Made by a program: the position numbers and the translations under genes
Notes under the pieces: model-generated
Told to the model about the DNA's origin: nothing
Seen by the model: the letters and a program-made list of their open reading frames with translations, nothing else
The model's database searches: none
Part shown: one piece after another, positions 8,331 through 56,013 of the stretch
Position numbering within the stretch: position 1 is the stretch's first letter
Layout of the letters: every line of letters begins with the position of its first letter
Assembly (NCBI RefSeq): GCF_022846255.1
Contig: NZ_AP025682.1
Direction: 5' to 3' (one strand)
DNA: 64,000 bases
Origin: Escherichia coli
Lineage (GTDB): Bacteria > Pseudomonadota > Gammaproteobacteria > Enterobacterales > Enterobacteriaceae

Positions 8331-10364
8331 TTATTTCACCTGATGACCCGGTTTAGCACCAGCATCCGGACTTAGCAGGAAAATATCTTTCCCGCCAGGA
8401 CCGGCAGCCATCACCATGCCTTCGGAGATACCGAAGCGCATTTTACGTGGTGCCAGGTTAGCCACCATAATGGTGTGACGACCAATTAGTGCCTGCGGAT
8501 CCGGGTAAGCAGAACGAATGCCGGAGAAGACATTGCGTTTTTCACCGCCGAGATCCAGCGTCAGGCGCAGCAGTTTGTCAGAACCTTCAACAAACTCTGC
8601 GTTTTCGATCAGCGCCACGCGCAGGTCAACTTTGGCGAAGTCGTCAAAGGTGATGGTTTCCTGAATCGGATCATCTGCCAGTGGGCCAGTAACTGGCGCG
8701 GCAGCTGCTTTCACTTCTTCTTTAGACGCTTCCACCAGTGCTTCAACCTGCTTCATATCGATGCGGTTATACAGCGCTTTGAACGGATTCACTTTGTGGC
8801 CCAGCAGCGGTTGCTGGATACCATCCCAGGTCAGTTCTGTATTGAGGAATGCTTCTGCGCGCTCGGTCAGTTTCGGCAGTACCGGCTTCAGGTAAGTCAT
8901 CAGCACGCGGAACAGGTTTATGCCCATTGAGCAAATTGCCTGCAGGTCGGCATCGCGGCCTTCCTGTTTTGCCACCACCCACGGAGCCTGTTCATCGACA
9001 TAGCGGTTAGCCAGATCAGCCAGCGCCATGATTTCGCGTACTGCTTTACCAAATTCGCGGCTTTCCCACGCCTCACCAATCACTTCAGCGGCATCAGTGA
9101 AGGTTTTGTACAACTGCGGGTCAGCCAGTTCGCTTGCCAGCACGCCGTCAAAACGCTTGTTGATAAAGCCCGCATTACGAGAGGCCAGGTTAACCACTTT
9201 GTTAACGATATCGGCATTCACGCGCTGAACGAAATCTTCCAGGTTGAGATCGATATCATCAATGCGCGAAGAGAGTTTCGCAGTGTAGTAGTAACGCAGG
9301 CTGTCGGCGTCAAAATGATTCAGCCAGGTGCTGGCCTTAATAAAGGTACCGCGAGACTTAGACATCTTCGCGCCGTTCACCGTCACATAGCCATGAACAA
9401 ACAGGTTGGTCGGCTTGCGGAAGTTGCTGCCTTCCAGCATTGCTGGCCAGAACAGGCTGTGGAAGTAAACAATATCTTTACCGATGAAGTGGTACAGCTC
9501 GGCGGTGGAGTCTTTCTTCCAGTATTCATCGAAGCTTACGCTGTCGCCGCGCTTGTCGCACAGATTCTTGAAAGAACCCATATAGCCAATCGGCGCATCC
9601 AGCCAGACGTAGAAATATTTACCCGGCGCGTTCGGAATTTCAAAACCGAAGTACGGCGCGTCGCGGGAGATATCCCATTGTTGCAGGCCAGATTCAAACC
9701 ACTCCTGCATTTTGTTTGCCACCTGCTCCTGCAACGCACCGCTGCGGGTCCATGCCTGCAGCATTTCGCTGAAAGAGGGCAGATCAAAGAAGAAGTGTTC
9801 AGAATCACGCATTACCGGGGTAGCGCCAGAAACCACCGATTTCGGCTCGATCAGTTCAGTCGGGCTGTAGGTCGCGCCGCAGACTTCGCAGTTATCGCCG
9901 TATTGATCCGGGGATTTACATTTCGGGCAGGTGCCTTTTACAAAACGGTCCGGCAGGAACATGCCTTTTTCCGGATCGTACAGCTGAGAGATGGTGCGGT
10001 TTTTAATAAAACCGTTTTCTTTCAGGCGAGAGTAGATAAGTTCTGACAACTGGCGGTTCTCTTCGCTGTGCGTCGAGTGATAGTTGTCATAGCTGATGTT
10101 AAAGCCTGCGAAATCAGTCTGATGCTCCTGACTCATTTCGCCAATCATCTGCTCCGGAGTGATACCAAGCTGCTGAGCTTTCAACATGATTGGTGTACCG
10201 TGGGCATCGTCGGCGCAGATGAAGTTGACCTCGTGGCCGCGCATTCGCTGGTAACGGACCCAGACATCAGCCTGGATGTGCTCCAGCATATGGCCGAGGT
10301 GGATTGAGCCGTTAGCGTACGGCAGTGCGCACGTCACCAGAATTTTCTTCGCGACTTGAGTCAT
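8331..10364 (-). CDS. metG: methionyl-tRNA synthetase
   Basis: Translation begins [31 protein letters not shown] (class I HIGH motif) and contains KMSKS; 677 aa from the second in-frame ATG. Confidence 0.97.
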
Positions 10365-10495
10365 AGTAGGCATTACTTCTTAATAGTGAAAAGGGGTTAG
10401 ATAGTACCAAATGGGAAAATGTTAAGTAAGTACTTCTCTATATTCTTCAGGTAAACTATCAACTGATGGTTTATCTATACAAAAAAGGAGTCGGG

Positions 10496-11605
10496 ATGAA
10501 CGAACAATCCCAGGCCAAATCACCAGAAGCCTTGCGCGCAATGGTCGCCGGGACACTGGCCAATTTTCAGCACCCAACCCTGAAGCATAACCTCACAACG
10601 CTGAAAGCGTTGCACCATGTCGCCTGGATGGACGACACGCTGCATGTGGAACTGGTTATGCCATTCGTCTGGCATAGCGCGTTCGAAGAGTTAAAAGAGC
10701 AATGTAGCGCCGAACTGCTGCGCATCACCGGAGCGAAAGCTATCGACTGGAAACTGTCGCATAACATAGCCACTCTGAAACGCGTGAAGAATCAGCCGGG
10801 AATTAACGGCGTGAAGAACATTATCGCGGTCAGTTCCGGTAAAGGTGGCGTGGGTAAATCCTCCACGGCGGTAAACCTGGCGTTGGCACTGGCGGCGGAA
10901 GGGGCGAAAGTCGGCATTCTGGACGCCGATATCTACGGCCCATCAATCCCTACCATGCTGGGCGCAGAAAATCAGCGTCCAACTTCGCCGGACGGTACCC
11001 ATATGGCACCGATTATGTCTCATGGCCTGGCAACTAATTCAATTGGTTATCTGGTGACAGACGACAATGCGATGGTGTGGCGTGGCCCAATGGCGAGCAA
11101 GGCGTTAATGCAAATGTTGCAGGAAACCTTGTGGCCGGATCTCGACTATCTGGTGCTTGATATGCCGCCAGGTACCGGTGACATTCAATTGACATTGGCA
11201 CAAAACATTCCAGTAACCGGTGCAGTCGTGGTCACCACCCCGCAGGACATCGCGTTGATCGATGCGAAAAAAGGCATTGTGATGTTCGAGAAAGTCGAAG
11301 TTCCGGTGCTCGGTATTGTCGAGAACATGAGTGTGCATATTTGCAGTAACTGTGGTCACCATGAACCGATTTTCGGTACCGGTGGTGCAGAGAAACTGGC
11401 CGAGAAATACCACACGCAGCTGCTGGGGCAGATGCCGTTACACATCTCCTTACGTGAGGATCTCGATAAAGGCACGCCAACGGTTATCAGCCGTCCTGAG
11501 AGCGAATTTACCGCTATCTACCGCCAGCTGGCTGACCGCGTTGCAGCTCAGCTCTACTGGCAGGGTGAAGTCATTCCAGGCGAGATTTCCTTCCGCGCGG
11601 TCTGA
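10496..11605 (+). CDS. mrp: Fe-S cluster carrier ATPase Mrp/ApbC
   Basis: MNEQSQAKSPEALRAMVAG...; P-loop SGKGGVGKS; CxxC near C-terminus; AAGGAG 7 nt upstream of ATG 10496. Confidence 0.95.
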   Translation: MNEQSQAKSPEALRAMVAGTLANFQHPTLKHNLTTLKALHHVAWMDDTLHVELVMPFVWHSAFEELKEQCSAELLRITGAKAIDWKLSHNIATLKRVKNQPGINGVKNIIAVSSGKGGVGKSSTAVNLALALAAEGAKVGILDADIYGPSIPTMLGAENQRPTSPDGTHMAPIMSHGLATNSIGYLVTDDNAMVWRGPMASKALMQMLQETLWPDLDYLVLDMPPGTGDIQLTLAQNIPVTGAVVVTTPQDIALIDAKKGIVMFEKVEVPVLGIVENMSVHICSNCGHHEPIFGTGGAEKLAEKYHTQLLGQMPLHISLREDLDKGTPTVISRPESEFTAIYRQLADRVAAQLYWQGEVIPGEISFRAV

Positions 11606-11867
11606 CGCGTATTAACCATTCTGGTTATTCTTCATACACCGCAGAGATGTTACATTGATGCGGTGTATTTGTTTTTGCAACATTAATGAACACTTATTTA
11701 ATGCTGCGAATATTCTGCGGACCTTCGTCCGAAACTCTACAAAGTCGATTGATCGTACCGGCGATGCTTCATTATCATCCTTCGTGGCTGTGTAGTGGAT
11801 GTACAGCTATAGTTTGTTATGCACTCATTCTTTCCAGGCATAACCTTTACTACAGGGATAACGTTCA

Positions 11868-12149
11868 ATGAATAAGTACTGGCTGTCAGGAATTATTTTT
11901 CTTGCCTATGGATTGGCTTCTCCCGCGTTCTCTTCAGAAACTGCCACATTAACGATTAATGGTAGGATCAGTCCCCCGACATGCAGTATGGCTATGGTTA
12001 ATGGTCAACCTCAACAGCATTGTGGTCAGTTAACGTATAATGTTGATACCCGTCATCAGGTTTCTTCGCCAGTTAAAGGTGTAACGACGGAAGTGATTGC
12101 TGCAGATAGCGATAGCAAACGTCGAATCGTGTTAAATCGCTACGATTAA
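11868..12149 (+). CDS. yehE: small secreted protein YehE (93 aa, signal peptide)
   Basis: ORF track; N-terminal signal peptide; position upstream of the yeh chaperone-usher genes. Confidence 0.75.
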   Translation: MNKYWLSGIIFLAYGLASPAFSSETATLTINGRISPPTCSMAMVNGQPQQHCGQLTYNVDTRHQVSSPVKGVTTEVIAADSDSKRRIVLNRYD

Positions 12150-12440
12150 TTTGCCACCCTGGTTTAATTGGATTTAGAAAGCTTAAATCATTTACGTGAA
12201 TGATTTAAGCTTTTTTATTGATATTAATAATACCATTTATAGAAATCTACATTAATTAATAGATTTGATAAATATTTAATGTGCTTAAGTATTTGTTGTG
12301 TTTATATTGCAATGGTTAATTTGCTTTAAATCAATAAAACAATGTGTTTACATTGCGGCAACTTTTTGGGTGTGAGAAATTTGTTTCCAAGAGATACAGA
12401 CTCTTAACAACCAAAAATAGATTTTATTAAGGAGCATATT

Positions 12441-12983
12441 ATGAAACGTTCAATTATTGCTGCCGCTGTTTTTTCTTCTTTTTTTATGAGCGCTGGGGTA
12501 TTTGCCGCAGACGTTGATACCGGAACATTAACCATTAAAGGGAATATTGCAGAATCTCCGTGTAAATTCGAAGCAGGTGGCGATTCAGTAAGTATTAATA
12601 TGCCAACTGTACCAACTACGGTCTTTGAAGGTAAAGCTAAATACTCGACCTATGATGGTGCAGTCGGTGTAACCAGCAGCATGTTAAAAATTAGCTGTCC
12701 GAAAGAAGTTGCTGGTGTAAAACTCTCGTTGATTACCAACGATAAAATAACCGGAAACGATAAGGCGATAGCCAGTAGCAACGATACCGTGGGGTATTAT
12801 CTCTATTTAGGTGATAACAGCGATGTCCTGGATGTTTCTGCACCTTTCAACATCGAGAGTTATAAAACAGCGGACGGTCAATATGCTATTCCGTTTAAAG
12901 CAAAATACCTGAAGCTGACAGATAATTCAGTGCAATCAGGTGATGTGTTATCTTCTCTGGTTATGCGTGTGGCGCAGGATTAA
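12441..12983 (+). CDS. yehD: fimbrial major subunit-like protein YehD
   Basis: Signal peptide, conserved Cys pair, typical pilin size (180 aa); first gene of the chaperone-usher cluster. Confidence 0.85.
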   Translation: MKRSIIAAAVFSSFFMSAGVFAADVDTGTLTIKGNIAESPCKFEAGGDSVSINMPTVPTTVFEGKAKYSTYDGAVGVTSSMLKISCPKEVAGVKLSLITNDKITGNDKAIASSNDTVGYYLYLGDNSDVLDVSAPFNIESYKTADGQYAIPFKAKYLKLTDNSVQSGDVLSSLVMRVAQD

Positions 12984-13063
12984 TAAATAAAATTATAAAT
13001 TTTCCCAGGTAATAAACATGGCCGCTATCCCCATGGCGGCCTTTTAATTTAAGAGGCATTAAG

Positions 13064-13738
13064 ATGAAAGGATTATTTGCTTTACTCATTTCTTCTATGG
13101 TCCTTCCTGCACATGCCGGTATTGTTATCTACGGGACGCGTATTATTTACCCGGCAGAAAATAAAGAAGTGATGGTGCAGTTGATGAATCAGGGAAACCG
13201 TTCTTCGCTGCTGCAGGCGTGGATTGATGATGGCGATACGTCGTTACCACCAGAAAAAATTCAGGTTCCTTTCATGTTAACGCCACCAGTGGCAAAAATA
13301 GGGGCAAATTCCGGGCAGCAAGTAAAAATTAAAATTATGCCGAATAAACTACCCACTAATAAAGAGAGTATTTTTTATCTGAATGTTCTGGATATTCCAC
13401 CAAATAGTCCAGAACAAGAAGGTAAGAATGCACTGAAGTTTGCGATGCAAAACAGAATTAAGTTGTTTTACCGGCCAGCGGGTATTGCTCCGGTAAATAA
13501 AGTGACCTTTAAAAAGTTACTGGTAAATCGCAGTGGCAATGGATTGGTGATAAAAAATGACTCAGCTAATTGGGTGACGATTTCGGATGTCAAAGCTAAT
13601 AATGTTAAAGTCAATTATGAAACTATTATGATTGCCCCCTTAGAAAGTCAGAGTGTTAATGTCAAAAGTAATAATGCAAATAACTGGCATCTGACCATTA
13701 TCGATGACCATGGCAATTATATTAGTGACAAAATTTAA
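13064..13738 (+). CDS. yehC: periplasmic fimbrial chaperone YehC (PapD-like)
   Basis: 224 aa with signal peptide; GTRIIYP / NRIKLFYRP chaperone signature motifs. Confidence 0.9.
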   Translation: MKGLFALLISSMVLPAHAGIVIYGTRIIYPAENKEVMVQLMNQGNRSSLLQAWIDDGDTSLPPEKIQVPFMLTPPVAKIGANSGQQVKIKIMPNKLPTNKESIFYLNVLDIPPNSPEQEGKNALKFAMQNRIKLFYRPAGIAPVNKVTFKKLLVNRSGNGLVIKNDSANWVTISDVKANNVKVNYETIMIAPLESQSVNVKSNNANNWHLTIIDDHGNYISDKI

Positions 13739-49493: not shown

Positions 49494-49663
49494 GGAGAAA
49501 AATGGAGGAATTATGAAACACTGTCGGGAATCGTCTGAATGACGGGCACATTTGCGAGCACGCATCCAGTAATAACACATGAAACTATTTTATCTACGCG
49601 TTAGCGATAGACTGCTTGCATGGCGAAAGGAGATAAGCCGACGATTTCAGCGGGACGCTGAAA

Positions 49664-49805
49664 CGGAAAAGCCCCTCCCGAGGAAGGGGCCTTAAATAAG
49701 GAAAGGGTCATGATGAAGTGGATCATCATCGTGGTGCTCTTAGTGATTAGCTACCCAGCATACTAAGACTACCAGGGCGGGGGAAACCCCGCTCTACCCT
49801 CACTC
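49664..49805 (-). ncRNA. Sib-family antisense sRNA (antitoxin RNA); boundaries approximate
   Basis: Antisense to the ibs ORF; minus-strand terminator hairpin CCCCTTCC-TC-GGGAGGGG followed by CTTTTCC at about 49664-49690. The 5' end is estimated from the usual Sib length of about 140 nt. Confidence 0.45.
49710..49766 (+). CDS. Ibs-family type I toxin, 18 aa (MMKWIIIVVLLVISYPAY)
   Basis: Short hydrophobic ORF with SD AAGGAAAGGG; Ibs family signature MMK...LLVIS..AY. A or B assignment not attempted. Confidence 0.7.
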   Translation: MMKWIIIVVLLVISYPAY

Positions 49806-49991
49806 CTGAAAGTATGCCTTCACGGTCCAATTGTCAATCCGCAGACTTTGCAGTCTGCGATCCTGCCAGCAAATATTCTTTGCGAGTCGTTACGCAATAA
49901 TCACACTTGAAACTATTTTATCCGCAAGTCAGCGATAGACTGCATACAGGGCGAAAGGAGGTAAGCCGAAGATTTCAGCGGGACGCTGAAA

Positions 49992-50133
49992 CGGGAAAGC
50001 CCCTCCCGAGGAAGGGGCCTTAAATAAGGAAAGGGTCATGATGAAGCTACTCATCATCGTGGTGCTCTTAGTCATTAGCTGGCCAGCTTACTAAGACTAC
50101 CAGGGCGGGGGAAACCCCGCTCTACCCTCACTC
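49992..50133 (-). ncRNA. Sib-family antisense sRNA, second copy; boundaries approximate
   Basis: Same hairpin and terminator, offset by about 328 bp from copy 1. Confidence 0.45.
50038..50094 (+). CDS. Ibs-family type I toxin, 18 aa (MMKLLIIVVLLVISWPAY)
   Basis: Second copy within repeat unit 2; same SD and context. Confidence 0.7.
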   Translation: MMKLLIIVVLLVISWPAY

Positions 50134-50311
50134 CTGAAATTATGTCACTCCGCCCTTAGTGTCAATCGACGGCTCTCCGTTCTTGCGAGGCGAATAGCAA
50201 AATTTTCTGCGCCGCCGGGCCTAATTCTGAAAGTTTCTTCGTTTGCTCTTATTTCATTATTGCAATCGGTATGATACCGGACCTCAATAATTCTCTAAGA
50301 AAGGATTTCTT

Positions 50312-50971
50312 ATGAGCGAACAAATCACGTTTGCCACCAGCGATTTTGCCAGTAACCCGGAACCACGTTGCCCCTGCATTTTGCTGCTGGATGTTTCTGG
50401 CTCGATGAGCGGCAGACCCATTAATGAACTTAACGCCGGATTGGTTACCTTTCGCGATGAGCTGCTTGCCGACCCGCTGGCCTTAAAAAGAGTGGAACTC
50501 GGTATTGTGACGTTCGGCCCAGTGCATGTGGAACAACCCTTTACCAGCGCCGCTAATTTTTTCCCGCCCATCCTGTTTGCCCATGGGGATACACCAATGG
50601 GCGCCGCCATTACCAAAGCCCTGAATATGGTTGAGGAGCGCAAACGTGAGTATCGCGCCAATGGTATTTCCTATTATCGTCCGTGGATTTTCCTGATTAC
50701 CGATGGCGCACCAACCGATGAGTGGCAGGCTGCTGCCAACAAGGTGTTTCAGGGGGAAGAAGATAAGAAGTTTGCCTTCTTTTCCATCGGTGTTCAGGGG
50801 GCGGATATGAAGACGCTGGCCCAAATCAGCGTTCGTCAGCCTTTGCCATTGCAGGGATTACAATTCCGTGAACTGTTTAGCTGGTTATCCAGTTCGCTGC
50901 GTTCGGTTTCCCGCTCCACGCCGGGAACGGAAGTTGTGCTGGAAGCGCCAAAAGGCTGGACGTCAGTGTGA
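50312..50971 (+). CDS. yegL: vWA-domain protein YegL (TerY-like)
   Basis: 219 aa; MIDAS motif DVSGSMSG and downstream ITDGAPTD; 4-bp overlap with the next gene. Confidence 0.9.
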
Positions 50972-51729
50972 GCTGGCGTCTGGTCTATGCATCAACCGTT
51001 GGAACGTCGCACATCAGCGCGGACTTGCCTTGCCAGGATGCCTGCCAGATGCAGGTTGCCTGGTTAAATGACCAGCAGCCATTATTGTCGGTATTTGTCG
51101 CTGATGGCGCAGGCAGTGTCTCGCAGGGTGGCGAAGGTGCGATGCTCGCCGTCAATGAAGCGATGGCTTATATGTCGCAAAAAGTGCAGGGCGGGGAATT
51201 GGGGCTTAATGATGTCCTCGCAACGGACATTGTGCTGACCATTCGTCAGCGACTTTTTGCCGAGGCGGAAGCCAAAGAATTAGCGGTTCGCGATTTTGCC
51301 TGCACGTTTTTGGGATTGATTTCATCAGCTAATGGCACCTTGATTATGCAGATTGGCGATGGCGGCGTGGTGGTAGATTTGGGTCACGGTTTGCAACTGC
51401 CGCTCACGCCGATGGTGGGGGAATATGCCAATATGACGCACTTCATTACCGATGACGATGCTGTTTCCAGACTGGAAACTTACACCAGTACTGAGCGTGC
51501 GCATAAAGTTGCAGCATTTACGGATGGTATTCAGCGACTGGCGTTAAATATGCTGGATAATTCTCCGCATGTGCCTTTCTTTACCCCGTTTTTCAATGGA
51601 CTGGCGTCAGCAACGCAGGAACAACTCGATTTATTACCTGAATTGTTAAAGCAGTTTTTGTCCAGCCCGACGGTAAACGAGCGTACCGATGATGATAAAA
51701 CGTTGGCACTGGCGCTGTGGTTACCATGA
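50968..51729 (+). CDS. pphC: PP2C-like protein phosphatase PphC (YegK)
   Basis: 253 aa; conserved Asp-rich segments (VADGAGS, QIGDGG, FTDG) of PP2C-like phosphatases; overlaps yegI by 13 bp. Confidence 0.9.
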
Positions 51730-53666
51730 AACCCACTTTATATACTGCTACTGGTGAGTGCGTTACGCCTGGCCGTGAACTGGGCAAAGGCGGTGAAGGT
51801 GCGGTTTATGATATCGAGGAGTTTGCCGATAGCGTCGCCAAGATTTATCACACGCCGCCACCCGCCTTAAAACAGGACAAACTTGCCTTTATGGCTGCGA
51901 CAGCTGACGCGCAGTTGTTGAATTATGTCGCCTGGCCGCAGGCAACGCTTCACGGTGGACGAGGCGGAAAAGTTATCGGTTTTATGATGCCAAAAGTTTC
52001 TGGTAAAGAACCGATTCATATGATCTATAGCCCGGCACATCGTCGCCAGAGTTACCCTCATTGTGCGTGGGATTTTCTACTCTATGTTGCGCGCAATATT
52101 GCTTCATCTTTTGCTACTGTTCATGAGCACGGGCACGTCGTGGGTGACGTAAACCAGAACAGCTTTATGGTAGGTCGCGACAGCAAAGTGGTGTTGATTG
52201 ATAGCGACTCCTTTCAGATTAATGCCAATGGTACACTGCATTTATGCGAAGTCGGCGTGTCGCATTTTACGCCGCCAGAGCTGCAAACCATGCCATCATT
52301 TGTCGGCTTTGAACGCACAGAAAATCACGATAATTTTGGCCTTGCGTTGCTGATATTTCACATCTTGTTTGGTGGGCGGCATCCTTATTCCGGTGTACCG
52401 CTTATCTCTGATGCGGGTAATGCGCTGGAGACGGATATTGCCCATTTCCGTTATGCCTACGCGTCAGATAATCAGCGACGTGGTTTAAAACCGCCGCCAC
52501 GATCGATTCCGCTGTCGATGTTACCGGGCGATGTTGAAGCCATGTTTCAGCAGGCATTCACGGAAAGTGGCGTGGCAACCGGGCGTCCGACGGCAAAAGC
52601 GTGGGTAGCGGCACTTGATTTACTACGCCAACAGTTAAAGAAATGTACCGTTTCGGCAATGCATGTTTACCCCGCTCATTTGACTGACTGCCCGTGGTGT
52701 GCGCTGGATAATCAAGGCGTTATCTATTTTATTGATCTCGGCGAAGAGGTCATTACCACCGGCGGTGATTTTGTGCTGGCGAGAGTCTGGGCGATGGTGA
52801 TGGCGTCAGTAGCACCGCCAGCATTGCAATTACCATTACCCGATCATTTCCAACCGACTGGCAGGCCGCTTCCTTTAGGCCTGTTAAGGCGTGAATACAT
52901 CATTCTGATTGAGATCGCACTGTCAGCGTTATCGCTGCTGCTTTGCGGCCTTCAGACAGAACCACGTTATATTATTTTGGTTCCTGTGCTGTCGGCTATC
53001 TGGATTATTGGCAGCCTGACAAGCAAAGCGTACAAAGCAGAAATCCAGCAACGCCGTGAGGCGTTTAATCGTGCGAAAATGGACTATGACCATTTAGTCA
53101 GCCAGATCCAACAGTTGGGCGGGCTGGAAGGTTTTATCGCCAAACGGACGATGCTCGAAAAAATGAAGGACGAAATTCTTGGGTTACCGGAAGAAGAAAA
53201 GCGCGATCTGGCAGCACTTCAGGACACCGCAAGGGAACGGCAGAAGCAGAAGTTTCTGGAGGGATTTTTTATTGATGTTGCCTCTATTCCCGGCGTTGGC
53301 CCTGCGCGTAAAGCGGCGTTACGGTCCTTTGGTATTGAAACAGCAGCGGATGTTACCCGACGGAGCGTTAAGCAAGTGAAAGGTTTTGGTGATCATCTGA
53401 CCCAGGCGGTTATCGACTGGAAAGCGAGCTGTGAACGCCGTTTTTTGTTCAGGCCGAACGAAGCGGTAACGCCTGCAGACAGACAAGCGGTAATGGCAAA
53501 AATGGCCGCCAAACGACATCGGCTGGAATCGGCGCTGACTGTCGGTGCGACAGAGTTGCAGCGATTCCGCCTTCATGCTCCAGCACGGACCATGCCGTTG
53601 ATGGAACCGCTACGTCAGGCGGCAGAAAAACTGGCTCAGGCGCAGGCTGATTTAAGCCGTTGCTGA
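51717..53666 (+). CDS. yegI: atypical membrane-associated Ser/Thr protein kinase YegI
   Basis: 649 aa; Gly-rich loop GKGGEGAVY, Lys in VAKIYH, catalytic-loop-like HVVGDVNQNSF, LIDSDSF; two hydrophobic segments; C-terminal HhH-like IPGVGPARKAALRSFGIETAADV. Confidence 0.9.
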   Translation: MVTMKPTLYTATGECVTPGRELGKGGEGAVYDIEEFADSVAKIYHTPPPALKQDKLAFMAATADAQLLNYVAWPQATLHGGRGGKVIGFMMPKVSGKEPIHMIYSPAHRRQSYPHCAWDFLLYVARNIASSFATVHEHGHVVGDVNQNSFMVGRDSKVVLIDSDSFQINANGTLHLCEVGVSHFTPPELQTMPSFVGFERTENHDNFGLALLIFHILFGGRHPYSGVPLISDAGNALETDIAHFRYAYASDNQRRGLKPPPRSIPLSMLPGDVEAMFQQAFTESGVATGRPTAKAWVAALDLLRQQLKKCTVSAMHVYPAHLTDCPWCALDNQGVIYFIDLGEEVITTGGDFVLARVWAMVMASVAPPALQLPLPDHFQPTGRPLPLGLLRREYIILIEIALSALSLLLCGLQTEPRYIILVPVLSAIWIIGSLTSKAYKAEIQQRREAFNRAKMDYDHLVSQIQQLGGLEGFIAKRTMLEKMKDEILGLPEEEKRDLAALQDTARERQKQKFLEGFFIDVASIPGVGPARKAALRSFGIETAADVTRRSVKQVKGFGDHLTQAVIDWKASCERRFLFRPNEAVTPADRQAVMAKMAAKRHRLESALTVGATELQRFRLHAPARTMPLMEPLRQAAEKLAQAQADLSRC

Positions 53667-53678
53667 GCCAGTTTTCAA

Positions 53679-55031
53679 TTAACGAAACACCACTTCCGCC
53701 CAGCGTGCCAGCCCGGCGGTGACGGAGCCAAAGTCATCGCCACCTGCAATCGGAATGCCCGGCAACTGTTCTGTCAGCGCTTTTTTAATCAGCGGTGAAC
53801 GGGCGCTACCGCCGGTCAGATAGATAACATCCGGTTTTTCCTGGGCGTTATCCAGCGCCAGTTGCACCTGTTCCAGAATCCGCGCCAGTGGCTGGTTGAG
53901 GGCGCTTTCCAGCCCTTGCTGGCTAATCAGCGTAGCCAGTTCATCGCTGATAAACGGCAGTGAGGCGCGGGTTTCCGCTACGCTTGAAAGCGCAATTTTG
54001 CTCTCTTCTGCGCTACGTACCAGGCGATAGCTTAAACGCTGACGCCAGACTTTCTGTAACAGGGCCACTTTTTCCGGTTCGCGGGCATCGCGTACCAGAT
54101 CGTTAAGCAGACGACCGTTGGCACTACTGTAGAAATCACTTTGCGCAGGTACGTCGTTGATGGCAACCGCATTCCACCACGGCAGAATCGGCAGGGCGAT
54201 GCCTTTTTCGGTTTCGCCACCCATGCCCAGTAACGGCATCAGGTTCTTAAACGCCAGTGCGATATCCAGATCGTTACCACCAATACGGCAACCACTGTGA
54301 CCCAGCAGGCTGGCTTCACGATCGAGACGCGAACGCCACTGCGGCCCCATCAGCAGCAATGAACAGTCAGTCGTACCACCGCCGATATCCACCACCAGCA
54401 CCCGTTTTTCTTCCTGCAAGGTGGCTTCGTAATCCAGCCCAGCCGCCACCGGCTCGTACTGGAATACCACGTCCTTAAACCCGGCACGCTTCGCTGCGCG
54501 CTCCAGAATCCCTTGTGCCTGGGCGTTTGCTTCATCGCCGCCCAGCCCCTGGAAGTTGATCGGGCGACCAATCACCGCCTGGGTAATTGCCTCCGGCAAT
54601 TGCGCCTGCGCCTGCTGGCGAATGTGCAACATCATTGCGCAGACCAGATCCTCAAACAGCGCTACCTGCTGCGGTTTTAAGCCGCTGGCACCGAGGAACG
54701 ATTTTGGTGATTTCACAAACCACACTTCTTCTGGATCATCAATGTACTGTGCCAGTGAGGAAAGACCGAACTGCACGCTTTTCGCCGTAACATCGATATC
54801 TTCTTCGCGGTTATAACGAATCGCCCGACGCAGCAGCGCCTGCGTTTCATCGTCGTCTGCCGGAACATCATGATAGCGGTACAGCCATTCGCTTACCGCT
54901 TCACGCGTTGGCGCGCAAAGCATTGAAGGCAGCAGCGTGCTGTCGTTTTCCATTTTCAGTAATTGCGGCTTACCGTCGCGCATGACCGCCACTGAACAGT
55001 TTGCTGTACCGTAATCAAAACCAATAAACAC
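53679..55031 (-). CDS. yegD: Hsp70/actin-fold ATPase YegD
   Basis: 450 aa from a GTG start (VFIGFDYGTANCSVAV, DnaK-type phosphate-1 motif); the 471-aa track ORF is an extension. Confidence 0.88.
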   Translation of the reverse strand: MFIGFDYGTANCSVAVMRDGKPQLLKMENDSTLLPSMLCAPTREAVSEWLYRYHDVPADDDETQALLRRAIRYNREEDIDVTAKSVQFGLSSLAQYIDDPEEVWFVKSPKSFLGASGLKPQQVALFEDLVCAMMLHIRQQAQAQLPEAITQAVIGRPINFQGLGGDEANAQAQGILERAAKRAGFKDVVFQYEPVAAGLDYEATLQEEKRVLVVDIGGGTTDCSLLLMGPQWRSRLDREASLLGHSGCRIGGNDLDIALAFKNLMPLLGMGGETEKGIALPILPWWNAVAINDVPAQSDFYSSANGRLLNDLVRDAREPEKVALLQKVWRQRLSYRLVRSAEESKIALSSVAETRASLPFISDELATLISQQGLESALNQPLARILEQVQLALDNAQEKPDVIYLTGGSARSPLIKKALTEQLPGIPIAGGDDFGSVTAGLARWAEVVFR

Positions 55032-55164
55032 GAAATAATCCCCATGCCGGTGAAGAAGGGGCGAGACTTTAGCGAAATGTTGCCGTCGCGACAACCGGAA
55101 TATGAAAGCAAAGCGTAGCGTCTGAATAACGTTTATGCTGAAAGCGGATTAAAAAGGAGATGCG

Positions 55165-56013
55165 ATGTATACCCTGAACTGGCAGCCGCCATATGACTGG
55201 TCGTGGATGTTGGGATTTCTCGCCGCCCGTGCGGTGAGCGGTGTGGAAACGGTTGCGGACGATTATTATGCCCGTAGTCTGGCGATGGGCGAATATCGCG
55301 GCGTGGTGACTGCTATTCCGGATATAGCCAGCCATACTCTGCACATAAATTTAAGTGCAGGTTTAGAACCTGTTGCCGCTGAGTGTCTGGCGAAAATGAG
55401 CCGCCTGTTTGATTTGCAATGTAACCCGCAGATTGTTAACGGTGCGTTGGGCAAGTTAGGCGCGGCGCGGCCCGGATTGCGTTTACCCGGCAGTGTTGAT
55501 GCTTTTGAGCAGGGCGTGCGGGCGATTTTAGGCCAACTGGTGAGCGTGGCGATGGCGGCAAAATTGACCGCCAGAGTGGCACAGCTTTATGGCGAAAGGC
55601 TGGATGATTTTCCGGATTATGTCTGCTTCCCCACGCCTCAGCGGCTGGCAGCAGCAGATCCGCAGGCATTAAAAGCGTTAGGTATGCCGTTGAAACGGGC
55701 AGAGGCGCTGATTCATCTGGCAAATGCGGCGCTGGAGGGCACCTTACCAATGACAATACCGGGCGATGTGGAGCAGGCGATGAAAACGCTGCAAACTTTT
55801 CCGGGTATCGGGCGCTGGACGGCGAATTATTTCGCCTTGCGCGGCTGGCAGGCGAAAGATGTTTTCCTGCCGGATGATTATCTGATTAAACAGCGATTTC
55901 CGGGAATGACACCGGCACAAATCCGCCGTTATGCCGAACGCTGGAAGCCCTTGCGTTCTTATGCGCTGTTGCATATCTGGTATACGGAAGGCTGGCAACC
56001 AGACGAAGCATGA
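55165..56013 (+). CDS. alkA: DNA-3-methyladenine glycosylase II
   Basis: 282 aa, MYTLNWQPPYDWSWMLGFLAARAVSGVETV; HhH-GPD segment (FPGIGRWTANYFALRG). Confidence 0.95.
   Translation: MYTLNWQPPYDWSWMLGFLAARAVSGVETVADDYYARSLAMGEYRGVVTAIPDIASHTLHINLSAGLEPVAAECLAKMSRLFDLQCNPQIVNGALGKLGAARPGLRLPGSVDAFEQGVRAILGQLVSVAMAAKLTARVAQLYGERLDDFPDYVCFPTPQRLAAADPQALKALGMPLKRAEALIHLANAALEGTLPMTIPGDVEQAMKTLQTFPGIGRWTANYFALRGWQAKDVFLPDDYLIKQRFPGMTPAQIRRYAERWKPLRSYALLHIWYTEGWQPDEA

Follow-up and report, generated by a model that had tools for sequence, protein, structure and literature searches.

Gene content and layout of the yegL-pphC-yegI locus

The window analysed in this study is a stretch of 64,000 nucleotides from Escherichia coli (RefSeq assembly GCF_022846255.1, contig NZ_AP025682.1), and the region of interest, positions 50312-55031, harbours the three consecutive genes yegL, pphC (yegK) and yegI together with the convergent gene yegD. 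All features that an earlier reading of the sequence, here termed the original prediction, had placed in this region were found where it had placed them, both in the open reading frame listing and by direct reading. It is close to certain that the cassette is the named E. coli operon yegL-pphC-yegI, the products of which were characterised biochemically by Rajagopalan, Nagle and Dworkin (J Bacteriol 2018; FEBS Lett 2020; preprints 10.1101/303594 and 10.1101/819920). It is likewise close to certain that the three genes, hereafter YegLKI, constitute a TerY-P-type triad by architectural definition, that is, as this class of Anantharaman, Iyer and Aravind (2012) is summarised by Bell et al. and Uchiyama et al. 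(PMC11090510 and PMC4978471). The genes and their domains are listed in Table 1.

The genes yegL and pphC overlap by 4 bp (GTGA), as originally predicted. The overlap between pphC and yegI is also 4 bp (ATGA) when yegI is read from the ATG at 51726, which is the start annotated by RefSeq in the closest genome and the one placed by Rajagopalan and Dworkin, and homologues most often share the resulting length of 646 aa. The 13-bp overlap given previously applies only to the longest open reading frame, from an alternative GTG at 51717, and hence reflects the choice of start codon; the reading frames overlap with either start. RefSeq names the phosphatase gene pphC and annotates a YegD of 450 aa, as from the GTG at 55031. 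The coordinates bear out that yegD has a GTG start, lies on the opposite strand and ends 12 bp from yegI, this being the spacing of the two convergent stop codons.

A megablast search recovered at least 80% of the interval 49579-55200 in 5153 of the 5426 complete E. coli genomes, the best match being 97.9% identical, and the window alleles were 96-98% identical to E. coli proteins in the databases. Since the arrangement is annotated likewise in E. coli genomes and recurs in this many of them, it is not a chance pattern. The gene set is identical to that studied by Rajagopalan and Dworkin, and the window displays the arrangement of the B/REL606 and O157 strains, with the ATGA overlap and without yegJ, whereas the K-12 strains differ by the insertion of yegJ. 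This gene of 153 aa, on the opposite strand (3721-4182 in the K-12-type locus L002) and interrupted by IS1 in some genomes, is absent from the window at 51726-51729.

Table 1. Features of the yegL-pphC-yegI region in the window, and neighbours of the triad at the ten loci outside Escherichia.
Feature	Coordinates	Strand	Details
yegL	50312-50971	+	ATG 50312, stop 50969-50971, 219 aa
pphC (yegK)	50968-51729	+	GTG 50968, 253 aa, PP2C-type Ser/Thr phosphatase
yegI	51726-53666	+	ATG 51726, 646 aa, membrane-anchored atypical Ser/Thr kinase
YegI kinase domain	51726-52640	+	residues 1-305: G-loop G20-G25, K39, catalytic D141, N143, D159-S-D161-S162 replacing DFG
YegI C-H-C-C knuckle/ribbon, predicted zinc	52644-52700	+	C307, H313, C322-P-W-C325
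YegI two-helix membrane hairpin	52890-53033	+	residues about 389-436; AlphaFold2 helices 389-409 and 415 onwards
YegI helical coiled-coil-like stalk	53034-53261	+	residues about 437-512; AlphaFold2 helices 415-465, 467-485, 487-500, 502-512
YegI (HhH)2 domain, predicted	53262-53441	+	residues about 513-572; G-h-G hairpins G523-V-G525-P, G553-F-G555
YegI C-terminal long helix	53472-53660	+	residues 583-645 (AlphaFold2); ends in conserved AQAxADL motif
yegD	53679-55031	-	GTG 55031, 450 aa, Hsp70/actin-fold ATPase; stop codon 53679-53681
Escherichia-specific insert	50149-53678	+	about 3.5 kb; whole triad and upstream region
SIB RNAs	49695-49837, 50023-50165	-	Rfam RF00113, 137 and 141 bits (gathering score 56)
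Ibs open reading frames	49710-49766, 50038-50094	+	19 codons (18 aa), antisense to SIB RNAs; RefSeq Ibs coding sequences at homologous positions
Triad locus L008			GmrSD, type I S subunit, SymE, BrnA
Triad locus L010			SLFN-like helicase, MazG, ScoMcrA_N/NOV_C, BrxR, JetB
Triad locus L011			AbiH, KAP NTPase, TniQ/TniB
Triad locus L012			housekeeping neighbours only
Triad locus L013			complete type I restriction-modification system and Mrr
Triad locus L014			uninformative
Triad locus L019			tyrosine integrase
Triad locus L020			tyrosine integrase and MkoC (E=0)
Triad locus L022			AbiJ_NTD5
Triad locus L023			GmrSD_N and HsdR

YegL and PphC

YegL matched the Pfam families VWA (1e-9) and VWA_2 (7e-7). 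The motif DVSGSMSG occupies residues 27-34 (nucleotides 50390-50413), and the metal ion-dependent adhesion site (MIDAS) is complete, its residues D27, S29, S31, T94 and D131 being invariant in an alignment with three plasmid TerY paralogues. A Ser-rich tail, W191-S202, is also conserved, and within it W191, S193, S195, S200 and S202 are common to the YegL-type and the ter-island TerY proteins. Across the triads found outside Escherichia the identity to the E. coli protein was 57-85% for YegL, 35-65% for PphC and 37-62% for YegI, and YegL is the most conserved and most constrained of the three proteins.

PphC matched PP2C_2 at 8e-52, as expected of the PP2C-like phosphatase that had been predicted. 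Its phosphatase activity, including the dephosphorylation of YegI, was demonstrated by Rajagopalan and Dworkin.

The kinase domain of YegI

No match of YegI to Pfam Pkinase was obtained, even at E<=10. The sole Pfam match was to HHH_5 (residues 515-551, 7.6e-4), and residues 113-238 gave weak matches to MkoA, to PD-T4-6 and to the LanL and LanKC kinase domains. A profile built from 105 YegI homologues, however, matched the sequences of solved kinases in the Protein Data Bank (PDB) at about 1e-5, and Pfam Pkinase was passed by 15 of 18 longer YegI relatives. The AlphaFold2 model of YegI, with a mean predicted local distance difference test score of 94.2, superposed in a Foldseek search of the PDB on BRAF, PknA, PknB and LCK, with E values of about 1e-7 and target-normalised template modelling (TM) scores of 0.6-0.73. 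Domain searches thus recovered the VWA and PP2C domains that the original prediction had named, and failed to recover Pkinase in E. coli YegI itself; the divergent kinase is nevertheless upheld by the fold match, the profile match and published activity.

The G-loop (G20-G25), K39 and D141 were invariant in the family alignment, and G22, K39, D141, N143, D159, D161 and S162 were so in the 105-110 family representatives, which are 35-63% identical. The canonical HRD motif, catalytic-loop Asn and DFG motif are not present in YegI, in agreement with published work. Its catalytic loop reads H-V-V-G-D-V-N-Q-N-S, and the DFG position is occupied by D-S-D-S, for which the family consensus is D-C-D-S. 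At the D+5 position of the catalytic loop (YegI residue 146) E. coli has a Ser, whereas 83 of 110 relatives keep the canonical Asn, so that the published ‘missing Asn’ is a lineage-specific change and not a trait of the family.

Rajagopalan and Dworkin found the autophosphorylation of YegI, by which the kinase is activated, to prefer Mn2+, to follow second-order kinetics, to depend on the D-S-D-S loop and to take place on serines of this loop, and reported that it was abolished by either K39D or D141N. K39, D141, the D-S-D-S loop, S153, S160 and S162 of the published YegI are all present in the window allele. YegI is a Hanks-fold Ser/Thr kinase, and the label ‘atypical’ is accurate.

YegI beyond the kinase domain

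Immediately after the kinase domain, YegI carries the pattern C307-x5-H313-x8-C322-P-W-C325, which has the form of a short C-H-C-C knuckle, not of a ribbon with four Cys, and which from the sequence is a predicted metal site. C307, H313, C322, W324 and C325 were invariant in the family alignment, and the linker from the knuckle to the membrane hairpin was weakly conserved. Hydropathy peaked at residues 389-393 and 413-417 in windows of 19 residues, and the PhoA-LacZ fusions of Rajagopalan and Dworkin define an inner membrane protein with two passes, N-in and C-in, that is, with both ends in the cytoplasm. The membrane character ascribed to the kinase beforehand is thereby corroborated by the hydropathy peaks, the hairpin of the AlphaFold2 model and the published topology.

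Past residue 330 the AlphaFold2 model is all-helical and consists of the hairpin, a stalk of low sequence conservation, a compact domain (residues 513-572) and a long helix. The two conserved G-h-G hairpins of the compact domain favour a true (HhH)2, or double helix-hairpin-helix, DNA-binding module, and this is the assignment that we favour on the basis of the model; the domain may instead serve in a SAM-like (sterile alpha motif) oligomerisation role. When a profile of the C-terminus was compared with PDB sequences, coiled-coil noise and sub-threshold HhH matches were all that was returned, and the assignment rests on the fold comparison. Among the long YegI variants no fused effector enzyme was present; the additional domains were TPR and SH3 only.

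An insert specific to Escherichia

The gene order in Salmonella and Citrobacter is asmA-dcd-udk-dgcE-alkA-yegD-ibs-mdtABC, without the triad. In BLAST comparisons with the window, the homology of these genera stopped exactly at the yegD stop codon (53679) and was picked up again in the sib/ibs region near 50148. This synteny and the mapped boundaries identify the triad as a 3.5-kb insert specific to Escherichia, and the triad was also found in E. whittamii, E. marmotae and further Escherichia species. Neither attachment-site-like repeats flanking the insert nor an anomaly in its G+C content (0.512) was found. An Escherichia ancestor acquired the cassette between the yegD stop codon and the ibs/sib-mdtA region, and purifying selection has kept it there.

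YegD is 88-90% identical in Salmonella and Citrobacter, compared with 62% for the nearest YegI outside Escherichia. It matched NCBIfam PRK11678 end to end (1-450/450; 2e-243; 808 bits, cut-off 331), and no Hsp70-family neighbour of the triad was present at any of the ten loci outside Escherichia described below. yegD is a backbone gene and an incidental neighbour outside the cassette, brought close to it only by where the insertion happened to occur.

The interval from mdtA to yegL contains two Ibs/Sib type I toxin-antitoxin units in tandem (Table 1). Only one ibs is present at this site in Salmonella and Citrobacter, from which it follows that the unit was duplicated in Escherichia, adjoining the point where the triad was inserted.

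Distribution and neighbourhoods outside Escherichia

Full-length relatives of YegI with 56-62% identity were found in Klebsiella spallanzanii, K. aerogenes, Piscinibacter, Chromobacterium and many metagenomes. An exhaustive search at E<=1e-30 returned 3245 clusters at 50% identity, most of them with proteins of about 645 aa. Ten loci outside Escherichia, with YegI identities from 62% down to 35%, were inspected. The original prediction had allowed that the three genes might not be conserved together beyond Escherichia; the triad was intact at all ten loci and in the same order, a vWA protein of about 219 aa, a PP2C_2 phosphatase of about 253 aa and the kinase. One of the loci carried Spo0E-like genes and therefore probably belongs to the Bacillota. 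The members of the triad thus stay together even in different phyla.

Restriction, Abi, Mokosh or BrxR/Wadjet genes stood beside the triad at seven of the ten foreign loci and not in E. coli itself (Table 1), an enrichment of defence genes that is suggestive. Neither ter genes (TerD, TerZ, TerC, TerB, TerW) nor the associated biosynthetic genes occurred in any of the 11 contexts made up of E. coli and these ten loci.

At one locus (L020), where the triad is preceded by an integrase, the gene directly downstream of it is MkoC (10281-13685; 1227 bits), a Mokosh type II gene of full length. Mokosh type I was reported to co-occur strongly with TerY-P in P. aeruginosa (Costa et al. 2024, PMC10889362).

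Directly upstream of the triad, three loci encode a basic protein of 69-70 aa that is 83-87% identical between the loci and absent from E. coli. In two of the three it is followed by an SNase-family nuclease with a signal peptide (positions of the small protein and nuclease module: L010, 4719-5474; L014, 5700-6501; L013, 6075-6284). A linked or accessory module may be represented here. Both proteins were considered as effectors of the cassette, but the nuclease, which bears a signal peptide and occurs at only two of the ten loci, was not counted as a component of it.

YegL, PphC and YegI matched PHROGs families without assigned function (phrog_28389, phrog_37072 and phrog_37888) near-identically and at full length. 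A real homologue of the triad was absent from the phage genome collection searched, and IMG/VR contained three loci only, so that carriage by phages was set aside; the matching families are probably artefacts of over-extended prophage boundaries. A scan of contigs with the single E. coli YegI query found only Escherichia loci and one contig of 559 bp assigned to Streptomyces sp. A1136 (NZ_SSBJ01000306.1, L007). The fragment in the latter is 97% identical to E. coli YegI, and the contig is almost certainly E. coli contamination at low coverage.

Selection, expression and phenotypes in E. coli

Ratios of nonsynonymous to synonymous substitution rates (dN/dS) were calculated by the Nei-Gojobori method for the window against four other Escherichia loci. 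They were 0.03-0.08 for yegL, 0.11-0.15 for pphC, 0.11-0.24 for yegI and 0.035-0.08 for yegD, and the values of 0.03-0.24 indicate that the triad genes are maintained by selection. A simple scan for a terminator between yegI and yegD gave counts at the level of shuffled sequence, and none was recognised.

The pphC gene of E. coli E69 (L006, 2980-3738) differed from that of the window (50968-51726) with a synonymous divergence of 0.82 and an amino acid identity of 82.6%, whereas the synonymous divergence of the flanking yegL and yegI was about 0.29. The contrast suggests that the phosphatase gene, and it alone, has an allele class that is old and recombines.

According to the work of Rajagopalan and Dworkin, yegI was mutated repeatedly in the long-term evolution experiment. 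Xia et al. found that endogenous DNA damage was raised by the overproduction of single proteins, among them YegL (a strong effect) and YegI (at least 5-fold). The recurrent mutations and the DNA damage phenotype fit a costly, DNA-linked activity.

Proposed role of the cassette and alternative explanations

The literature already covers the genes and their enzymology, the B-versus-K arrangement and the TerY-P concept, and the finding as such is known. New are the boundaries of the insertion, the exclusion of yegD, the assignment of the C-H-C-C knuckle and the (HhH)2 domain, the size of the YegLKI subfamily and its unity across phyla, the defence-island contexts and the non-detection by PADLOC described below. 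These additions reveal no new kind of system. They narrow the functional question, which now concerns a mobile cassette and not the enterobacterial backbone. YegI and PphC are the only known pair of a Hanks-type kinase and a PP2C phosphatase in E. coli.

The reading that we favour, and consider reasonably likely, is that a known TerY-P-type phospho-signalling cassette was inserted in Escherichia and serves there as a putative conflict module, of which yegD is not part. Such a module would be directed against phages or mobile DNA. The cytoplasmic stalk and (HhH)2 domain would sense a ligand at the membrane, which may be DNA, and this would lead to dimerisation and trans-autophosphorylation of YegI. 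YegI would then phosphorylate the output, with YegL, by way of its Ser-rich tail, as the leading candidate, and/or proteins of the phage or the host, while PphC would set the threshold and hold the system off in uninfected cells. What makes YegL the candidate recipient of the signal is the combination of a MIDAS with a conserved Ser-rich tail. Taken separately, the case for a defence role appears evenly balanced, and DNA sensing by YegI is doubtful.

Several observations weigh against this reading. Literature searches found no published phage assay of yegL-pphC-yegI, the cassette encodes no effector enzyme, and the neighbourhood evidence amounts to ten loci without a formal background model, at one of which (L012) the neighbours are housekeeping genes. 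Published attempts to detect expression of the cassette in the laboratory found none or very little, and a simple scan upstream of yegL revealed no sigma-70 promoter, the counts being at the level of shuffled sequence. In 1925 of the 5426 complete E. coli genomes (35%) yegJ lies between pphC and yegI. The presence of the cassette in about 95% of complete genomes, and thus nearly in the core, is unusual for defence systems.

If the defence role is true, the cassette would be a near-core addition to the defence repertoire of E. coli, and both the mutation of yegI in the evolution lines and the DNA damage upon overproduction of YegL or YegI would be explained. A bolder version, which we hold only tentatively, is that YegLKI represents a widespread TerY-P immunity subtype missed by defence finders, in which the (HhH)2 domain detects foreign DNA at the inner membrane and signals via YegL. 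E. coli would in that case carry an unrecognised, nearly core and normally silent system against phages or plasmids.

The best surviving alternative, unlikely in our judgement, is a housekeeping Ser/Thr pair in which YegI and PphC act on host substrates, as in stationary phase or envelope stress, with YegL as an adaptor and with no part in immunity. Near-universal occurrence in E. coli and presence in other Escherichia species agree with such a pair, as do purifying selection comparable to that on yegD and the repeated mutation of yegI in the evolution experiment. Published work adds weak stationary-phase expression and a set of about 100 E. coli proteins with phosphoserine or phosphothreonine that lack an assigned kinase, but a phenotype or substrate was not found there. 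The triad is, moreover, absent from the syntenic site in the sister genera Salmonella and Citrobacter, and its closest outside relatives, at no more than 62% identity, are scattered over unrelated taxa in defence or integrase contexts, which points to a mobile accessory module.

It is improbable that the cassette is a metal or tellurite-type stress sensor, in which the MIDAS of YegL would sense a metal ion and signal through a kinase/phosphatase relay. A metal-sensing switch was proposed for TerY-P by Anantharaman et al., as related in PMC11090510, and YegL is a clear homologue of the ter-island TerY with a fully conserved MIDAS, and YegI prefers Mn2+. Against this, ter or associated biosynthetic genes are found in none of the 11 contexts, and the neighbouring mdtABC efflux genes and ibs/sib units belong to the backbone, being present also in genera without the triad.

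Still less probable is a decaying relic, by which we mean a formerly mobile cassette, now silent, that E. coli is losing or that is being disrupted there. The dN/dS values of all three genes across Escherichia, at synonymous divergences of up to 0.3-0.8, speak against decay, and so do the intact reading frames of the window and the published activity of the purified enzymes. A relic could account for the lack of transcription in published work, the frequent yegJ insertion, the IS1 and other insertion sequences at the locus in some genomes, the truncated YegI proteins in the protein database and the loss in E. coli of the D+5 Asn kept by most relatives.

A functional coupling of YegD, in which the kinase would act on the Hsp70-like ATPase or together with it, and which would explain the convergent layout, is hardly credible, for although the stop codons are 12 bp apart and yegJ overexpression was reported to induce yegD in K-12, yegD is vertically inherited in Salmonella and Citrobacter without a triad, has no Hsp70-family counterpart at the ten foreign loci and stops exactly at the boundary of the insert.

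Relation of YegLKI to known systems

When plasmids were searched with YegL by tblastn, the three TerY paralogues encoded in the ter islands of IncHI plasmids were retrieved. In an intact ter island (L016) the order is TerY, a TerD-family gene, TerY, TerY-C, PP2C (577 aa) and kinase (499 aa). In pairwise comparisons with these proteins, YegL was 33% identical to TerY over 181 aa (E=6e-28), PphC was 28% identical to the PP2C phosphatase (E=1e-5) and YegI was 22% identical to the kinase (E=7e-5), the last alignment extending through the C-lobe as far as the Cys motif, where CPWC pairs with CPYC. Together with the VWA match, the first of these agrees with the TerY-like vWA protein with intact MIDAS that had been predicted. 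The TerY-P architecture of the original prediction is sustained as well, a TerY-like vWA protein, a PP2C phosphatase and a kinase all having been matched and the unit being conserved at the ten foreign loci.

The ter-island triad shares with YegLKI its three families and their order (vWA, PP2C, kinase), as well as an identical MIDAS and a Cys-rich knuckle after the kinase. It differs from YegLKI in its three TerY paralogues, one of which has a TerY-C metal-binding extension, and in the interleaved TerD-family gene. The ter-island kinase is soluble and has no membrane hairpin, stalk or HhH domain, whereas YegI has all three, and the ter-island triad sits among terZABCDE, terW and biosynthetic genes, none of which is near the YegLKI type. 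A DUF4236-domain protein of about 400 aa is encoded beside terW, upstream of it, in the IncHI ter islands (L015/L016), and a DUF4236-domain gene is also located a few kb from a YegLKI triad (L014, 1962-3182); it could be a second component common to Ter-related neighbourhoods.

With the TerY-P models of PADLOC, YegL scored E=0.017 (PDLC02224), PphC gave no match and YegI gave generic kinase matches only (MkoA, PD-T4-6). The genuine ter-island TerY, PP2C and kinase, run as a control, failed as well, which shows that the models are narrow. The failure was accordingly dropped as evidence against membership in TerY-P, and excludes only the Gao/PADLOC subfamily.

In the type VI secretion system of P. 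aeruginosa, PpkA, PppA and Fha1 combine a membrane Hanks kinase, activated by dimerisation, with a PP2C phosphatase and with a vWA domain in signal perception. The vWA domain of PpkA is fused to the kinase and periplasmic, and the output of the pathway is an FHA (forkhead-associated) protein. The sequence relation of PpkA/PppA to YegLKI is not known to extend beyond the shared superfamilies, and no type VI secretion genes lie near the triad.

The anti-phage tests to which the original prediction referred appear to have been made on other TerY-P subfamilies and not on YegLKI. The TerY-P systems of Gao 2020 and Costa 2024 resemble YegLKI in having three genes of the same domain families. These other TerY-P triads occur in defence islands and protect against T7-like or Autographiviridae phages without killing of the cell (Gao 2020, via PMC7699616; Costa 2024, PMC10889362). 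The Gao-type kinase is fused to an OB (oligonucleotide/oligosaccharide-binding) fold, as described by Bell et al. (PMC11090510), whereas YegI has no OB fold and carries the hairpin, the coiled coil and the (HhH)2 domain instead. The triads linked to CnuB/C/H/E (PMC11090510) likewise consist of a vWA protein, a PP2C phosphatase and a kinase-zinc-ribbon protein beside nucleic-acid-targeting defence genes. They are integrated in large CnuB/C/H/E operons, whereas YegLKI is a free-standing unit of three genes with additional membrane and HhH modules. YegLKI is a distinct subfamily of TerY-P, which PADLOC misses.

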